A stretch of DNA of 64,000 nucleotides from NCBI RefSeq assembly GCF_046105845.1, contig NZ_CP151004.1; one strand, given 5' to 3'. Numbering within the stretch: the first letter of the stretch is position 1; the number at the start of each line of letters is the position of its first letter. Positions 20,666 to 21,460 of this stretch are shown piece after piece. A program made the translations under genes and the position numbers. Under the pieces are notes generated by a model that was not told where the DNA came from, did not search any database, and saw nothing but the letters and a program-made list of their open reading frames with translations. The stretch is from Escherichia coli. Lineage in GTDB: Bacteria; Pseudomonadota; Gammaproteobacteria; Enterobacterales; Enterobacteriaceae.

Positions 20666-21460
20666 TCATAATAATTGCGGCGGCGCAAAGCGACGGTTGT
20701 TTAAGACGGGCAGTTGCGCGCGCACCTGACGCACACGTTCGGGCGTCACTTCCGCCATAATGAGTGCAGGCATTTCTGACGCTGCCGCAATGGTGACGCC
20801 AAAGGGATCTATAATCCGGCTTTGCCCGATATTTTTGTTCCCGCACTCCCCCGCCGCCACCATATAACAGGTGGTATCCAGCGCACGAGCGGCAAGCAAC
20901 GTTGACCAGTGATGCTCTTTGAGCGGCCCACGAACCCAGGCGGCAGGAAGTACCAGGATTTCAGCTCCCTGTAATGCCTGTGCCAGCGCCAGCTCTGGAA
21001 AGCGTAAGTCATAACAGGTCATCAGACCGACCTTCATCCCTTCCACCTCCAGTAACGGAGCTATTTCATTACCAGCATCAACATGGCGTGATTCCTGAAT
21101 GGCAAATGCATCATAGAGATGCAGTTTGGCATAACGGGCGACGATGTTTCCTGCCTGAAGTGCCACCAGCATATTCCATGCGCGCCCCGGCGTTGAAGGA
21201 ACATGAATCGTCAGAATTGTCGTCATCATGTTACGTTTACTTTCTCGCCGTAAACGTCCGAGGAATTTGCCTTCCAGCAGCTGCGCTGATTTAACCGATA
21301 GATCTGCATCATGATCATCACGCGCCAACAATGCTTCCGGCAGGACAAACAGCGAAACGTCGTTTTCCGCCGCCTGCGCCATCAACGAGGCACAAATCTC
21401 AGCGTTCTTTTCCCACACAGATGTAACAGCAAACTGTCCTGCGGCAACCAGCATTGCCAC
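20666..21460 (-). CDS. ybeM: Nitrilase/C-N hydrolase superfamily protein (Nit1-like amidase), intact frame
   Basis: 264-aa ORF with catalytic Cys in [10 protein letters not shown] context. Confidence 0.8.

Follow-up and report, generated by a model that had tools for sequence, protein, structure and literature searches.

An intact chromosomal ybeM of a non-K-12 Escherichia coli very probably encodes a Nit1-type deaminated glutathione amidase

The window (the whole stretch of 64,000 nucleotides that was analysed) carries ybeM on the minus strand, in its usual chromosomal place between crcB and tatE. Four RefSeq genomes share the crcB-ybeM-tatE order of the window. The longer order ybeF-lipA-tatE-ybeM-crcB-cspE-pagP-dcuC is the same in all of the E. 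coli records examined. The locus is laid out as follows:

19268-20233, plus strand: lipA (open reading frame listing)
20334-20537, minus strand: tatE (open reading frame listing)
20666..21454, minus strand: ybeM coding sequence from the likely ATG, 262 amino acids plus a TAA stop; predicted deaminated glutathione amidase, a Nit1-type carbon-nitrogen hydrolase
21458..21460, minus strand: upstream in-frame GTG, unlikely to be the true start; its first G is the last G of AGGAGGAGG, with no spacer
21460..21468, minus strand: Shine-Dalgarno region AGGAGGAGG, which is (AGG)3; alignment columns 93-101, 5 nt upstream of the ATG
21455..21549, no strand: divergent intergenic region between crcB and ybeM, 95 bp by the gene layout; it must contain the ybeM promoter
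21550-21933, plus strand: crcB (open reading frame listing), with cspE and pagP beyond

The open reading frame listing gives an uninterrupted frame at 20666..21460 on the minus strand, which encodes 264 amino acids from a GTG. The sequence-only reading had described ybeM as an intact gene of 264 codons, and the intactness holds. From any one start, a frame as long as this would arise by chance with a probability of about 3e-6. The encoded protein matches the Pfam family CN_hydrolase from end to end (E = 1.3e-40). The frame is thus a real gene and not a chance open reading frame. The GTG at 21460 was rejected as the start, since it overlaps the Shine-Dalgarno sequence. The ATG (21452-21454, minus strand) is 5 nt downstream of AGGAGGAGG, and the coding strand upstream of the gene reads ...GACAGGAGGAGGTGGCAATG. 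The orthologue in RefSeq also starts with an ATG two codons past the GTG, which gives a 789-bp coding sequence with the stop and a product of 262 amino acids. The boundaries are those of the RefSeq coding sequences in strains 2012C-4221, O157:H7 86-24, and Rosetta2-DE3. Taken together, the overlap of the GTG with AGGAGGAGG, the spacing of the ATG, and the RefSeq usage argue for the ATG as the start. The gene therefore most likely occupies 20666-21454, and 264 codons is the length of the mechanical frame.

A consensus sigma-70 promoter was not found in a scan of 20200-21700, and the two weak terminator-like hairpins in the same interval are no more than is expected by chance. An Rfam scan of 19000-23500 gave no match in or adjoining ybeM. 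The sole match above its gathering score was a cspA-type thermoregulator on the cspE leader (21939-22297, minus strand; 123 bits against a gathering score of 78), which spans the leader and the coding region of cspE. Such a match is expected as normal for a gene of the cold-shock family. At 20226-20299, between the convergent lipA and tatE, both strands show a cluster of Rfam matches below threshold, to leader families and to families that contain terminators. Their likeliest source is a shared bidirectional terminator hairpin. An out-of-frame open reading frame of 47 amino acids lies within ybeM (21061-21204, minus strand) and starts with MFLQRRGAH. A peptide of this sequence, from a 29-bp ybeM fragment in an expression library of UTI89, caused filamentation on over-expression (PMC6206680). 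The sequence is conserved in the window; the filamentation is probably an over-expression artefact.

The protein belongs to the carbon-nitrogen hydrolases. Pfam PF00795 is matched with 139.9 bits against a gathering score of 23.2, and residues 5-247 of the 264-residue frame align to profile positions 2-255 of 256. The curated cutoff of NF033621, the NCBIfam model for deaminated glutathione amidase, is 355 bits; the protein reaches 451.2 bits (E = 9.4e-136) in an alignment that spans profile positions 2-260 of 260. The solved structures closest to YbeM are those of the Nit domain of NitFhit (PDB ID: 1EMS; E = 4.7e-29) and of yeast Nit2 (PDB IDs: 4H5U and 4HGD; E = 1.1e-26). Together with mammalian Nit1, these eukaryotic proteins share the carbon-nitrogen hydrolase fold family with YbeM, but the relationship is a distant one at the level of a HMMER match and not of close identity. 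Unlike NitFhit, YbeM has no Fhit fusion, and it is shorter than yeast Nit2 and free of the insertions that the yeast protein shows in the alignment.

The predicted active-site residues are encoded at the following positions (numbering of the 262-residue protein):

21335..21337, minus strand: codon of the putative catalytic Glu40 (in LPE), aligned to Glu54 of 1EMS
21125..21127, minus strand: codon of the putative catalytic Lys110 (in YAKLHLYD), aligned to Lys127 of 1EMS
21092..21094, minus strand: codon of Glu121 (in IQES), aligned to the conserved Glu in MESE of 1EMS and KESK of yeast Nit2
21014..21016, minus strand: codon TGT of the putative nucleophile Cys147, aligned to Cys169 of 1EMS

E40, K110, and C147 align unambiguously with E54, K127, and C169 of C. 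elegans NitFhit (1EMS), which we take to be the catalytic residues of that structure. C147 also aligns with the serine of the yeast Nit2 C169S mutant structure (4HGD). The catalytic cysteine context noticed in the initial reading is therefore present, and the alignment recovers the complete Glu-Lys-Cys triad that it had proposed to look for. Glu121 is presumably the second catalytic glutamate of the tetrad of the nitrilase superfamily.

The K-12 orthologue lies at the same locus and is annotated as a "frameshifted" pseudogene in the MG1655 record. A four-way alignment placed the lesion at a single base:

21255..21255, minus strand: G that is absent from K-12 and keeps the frame of the window open; alignment column 306

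The K-12 translation reads MLVAAG...LEGEFLG and continues with LYGEKVNVT and two stops. Its product ends after 75 codons and has only residues 1-66 in common with the window protein. Because the frame shifts after residue 66, the catalytic Lys110 and Cys147 are lost. The K-12 gene also differs by V33A and V37A. Over the ybeM locus the window and MG1655 are 98.4% identical (995 bp), and over 6 kb the identity is 98.25% with 4 gaps. The disruption of the MG1655 copy, which the sequence-only reading had stated, is real: the K-12 gene is neither intact nor identical to that of the window. These comparisons support the view that the window is not from K-12.

The lesion is not peculiar to MG1655. 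The ybeM region was found in 5,424 of 5,426 complete E. coli genomes. In total 5,436 places match the region; 2 of them are on plasmids, and a few genomes have two copies. The K-12 allele was traced with a probe of 66 bases across the deletion and the undeleted form with the corresponding 67-mer of the window. The deletion probe matched exactly in 859 of about 5,420 complete genomes (~16%), and the undeleted 67-mer in 3,570. An intact ybeM is thus the norm in E. coli, and the earlier description of a disrupted K-12 gene has to be qualified accordingly: the frameshift stands, but 859 complete genomes share it and the intact state is that of the majority. Many of the 859 records are laboratory derivatives; others were isolated from humans, chicken, dog, and river water. 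In the chicken isolate ECCHD184, which carries the K-12 deletion allele, ybeM is also annotated as "frameshifted". The presence of the allele in natural isolates indicates that the lesion is a polymorphism of natural lineages and not a laboratory artefact. One further record, strain UTME-9, was the only one at 80-90% identity and was considered as a divergent orthologue with which to test for selection. It was discarded, as all genes of the neighbourhood are annotated as frameshifted, which points to a poor, error-rich assembly.

Four ybeM alleles were compared codon by codon. Of the variable codons, 13 are synonymous and 4 non-synonymous, against 194 synonymous and 592 non-synonymous sites, which gives a ratio of about 0.1. 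Of the non-synonymous changes, two belong to the K-12 pseudogene. In this small sample of four alleles, the ratio suggests that the intact gene is under purifying selection. Selection for the function of YbeM may nevertheless be weak, since about 16% of the complete genomes tolerate the K-12 frameshift.

The feature is very probably the intact chromosomal ybeM of a non-K-12 E. coli, and its product a Nit1-type deaminated glutathione amidase (EC 3.5.1.128). We infer the substrate and activity of the window allele from its near-identity to proteins so named and from published work on Nit1 orthologues. The protein is identical at 260 of 262 residues to WP_000959109.1, annotated as "deaminated glutathione amidase" in O157:H7 86-24 and in a BL21 derivative. 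WP_000959109.1, found in O157:H7 and in BL21 derivatives, is encoded at the same crcB-tatE locus, has the same length of 262 amino acids, and has the same catalytic residues. WP_001305561.1, the YbeM of strain 2012C-4221, is likewise of 262 amino acids and from the same locus. For E. coli YbeM in general, the substrate assignment derives from curated family models and secondary sources. E. coli YbeM itself is said to have been assayed by Peracchi et al. in 2017. YbeM has been equated with NIT1 (PMC8788347), and the reported function of Nit1 is the hydrolysis of deaminated glutathione (PMC7041631).

In the cell, transaminases now and then remove the free amino group of glutathione and so form 2-oxoglutaryl-Cys-Gly (deaminated glutathione), a useless product. 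YbeM would hydrolyse the amide bond of this compound to 2-oxoglutarate and cysteinylglycine, and 2-oxoglutarate, cysteine, and glycine would be recovered. It would thus act as a small metabolite-repair enzyme. The attack on the amide carbonyl is attributed to Cys147 and would give a thioester acyl-enzyme. Glu40 would serve as the general base, and Lys110, probably with Glu121, would stabilise the tetrahedral intermediate. Water would then free 2-oxoglutarate from the acyl-enzyme. Thioester chemistry of this kind with Cys, Glu, and Lys is standard for the nitrilase superfamily.

A name as specific as this could be wrong. YbeM might be an enzyme of the nitrilase superfamily with another main substrate, either a 2-oxoglutaramate omega-amidase like Nit2 and YafV or a true nitrilase. 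Nit1-type and Nit2-type enzymes share the fold and the triad, YbeM has significant structure matches in mouse Nit2 (2W1V) and yeast Nit3 (1F89) as well, and specificity is not readable from a sequence comparison. The family models nevertheless separate the candidates. The model for YafV/Nit2 omega-amidases (NF007757) gives 61.4 bits against a cutoff of 249, and the archaeal nitrilase model (NF040852, true nitrilase) gives 61.4 bits against a cutoff of 500, whereas the cutoff of NF033621 is exceeded by nearly 100 bits. YbeM also falls short of NF043013, the Yersinia-type deaminated glutathione amidase, with 82.7 bits against a cutoff of 500; this is a separate subfamily that bears the same name as NF033621. 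Among proteins of known structure, YbeM is closest to NitFhit and yeast Nit2, which are of the Nit1 type, and not to omega-amidases. E. coli YafV and the mammalian Nit2 omega-amidase share the superfamily and the mechanism with YbeM but belong to another subfamily. YafV is named as a 2-oxoglutaramate amidase and acts on 2-oxoglutaramate, not on deaminated glutathione (PMC8711792). We regard a different main substrate as very improbable, and the suggestion of a Nit1-like deaminated glutathione amidase made at the outset agrees with the family model and with the nearest proteins.

The allele of the window could also be impaired or silent in spite of its open frame, so that the strain would effectively be a ybeM null like K-12. 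Apart from its (AGG)3 region, the allele has two protein differences from WP_000959109.1, one rare and one found in a subset of strains:

21266..21268, minus strand: codon 63, AAA (Lys) where the other alleles have GAA (Glu); the rare E63K allele
21083..21085, minus strand: codon 124, CAT (His) in place of CGT (Arg); R124H, common to a subset of E. coli

Such an impairment would come from E63K or from altered initiation at (AGG)3. All of the 5,353 complete genomes with a match to a 63-mer that holds the E63K codon differ from it by one base; none is exact. Loss of ybeM is tolerated in nature. Loss of Nit1 lets deaminated glutathione accumulate but is not overtly harmful to mice, yeast, cell lines, or Arabidopsis (PMC7041631), which fits the tolerated loss of ybeM in K-12-like E. 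coli. However, residue 63 is distant in sequence from the triad and varies in the Nit family, aligning with a non-conserved Tyr in 1EMS and with Ser in yeast Nit2. Since the position is not conserved in the structural relatives, E63K is expected to be neutral. The exact protein with E63K is found in public collections (UniRef UPI00178D27BD and several NCBI accessions) and in at least 16 public contigs with varied flanks, which argues against a one-off error. The flanks of some of these contigs are about 0.5% different, and the E63K allele could have moved by recombination. The ribosome-binding region has (AGG)3 in the window and (AGG)2 in K-12 and O157:H7, i.e. one extra AGG, which looks like slippage at a short repeat. 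The variant may affect the initiation of ybeM translation. It is common, though: a 63-mer with (AGG)3 matched exactly in 846 of about 5,420 complete genomes, and most of the others match with a 3-base gap. If anything, it lengthens the Shine-Dalgarno complementarity. An impaired or silent allele therefore appears improbable, and a functional Nit1-type enzyme is the preferred reading.

The complete genomes nearest to the window over 9000-33000 are 99.3-99.4% identical over 24 kb; they include 19KM1831, 2012C-4221, 042, and PCN033. Public draft assemblies come much closer: GCA_023859905.1 shares 99.97% identity with the window over 20.8 kb, and one Logan contig, from SRR12605517, shares 100% over 5 kb. 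By these comparisons, the DNA comes from an ordinary natural lineage of E. coli to which none of the 5,426 RefSeq complete genomes belongs. The intact ybeM rules out K-12 and its relatives. It is otherwise uninformative as to the source, because the intact state is that of most E. coli.

Some observations bear on the regulation and use of the gene. A ChIP peak of NsrR has been assigned to crcB/ybeM in both CFT073 and K-12, and down-regulation of ybeM was seen in a mutant of CFT073 on exposure to NO (PMC5320621). Strain engineering has made use of ybeM in MG1655 as a site of integration (PMC11731478). The polymorphism between intact and frameshifted ybeM in E. coli might reflect adaptation and not neutral decay, but we think this highly unlikely. 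If it were so, the polymorphism could be tied to the reported binding of NsrR at the crcB/ybeM promoter and to the turnover of glutathione in nitrosative stress, and E63K and (AGG)3 would tune activity or expression in the lineage of the window.

Public annotation already records ybeM and its family, as well as the likely function of the product and the lesion in K-12. Beyond placing the window outside the K-12 lineage, the finding has little significance other than bookkeeping. It does recall that K-12 is atypical at ybeM. Most E. coli, including BL21 and O157:H7, retain the YbeM enzyme, and work on the repair of glutathione damage in MG1655 is work in a natural ybeM null.
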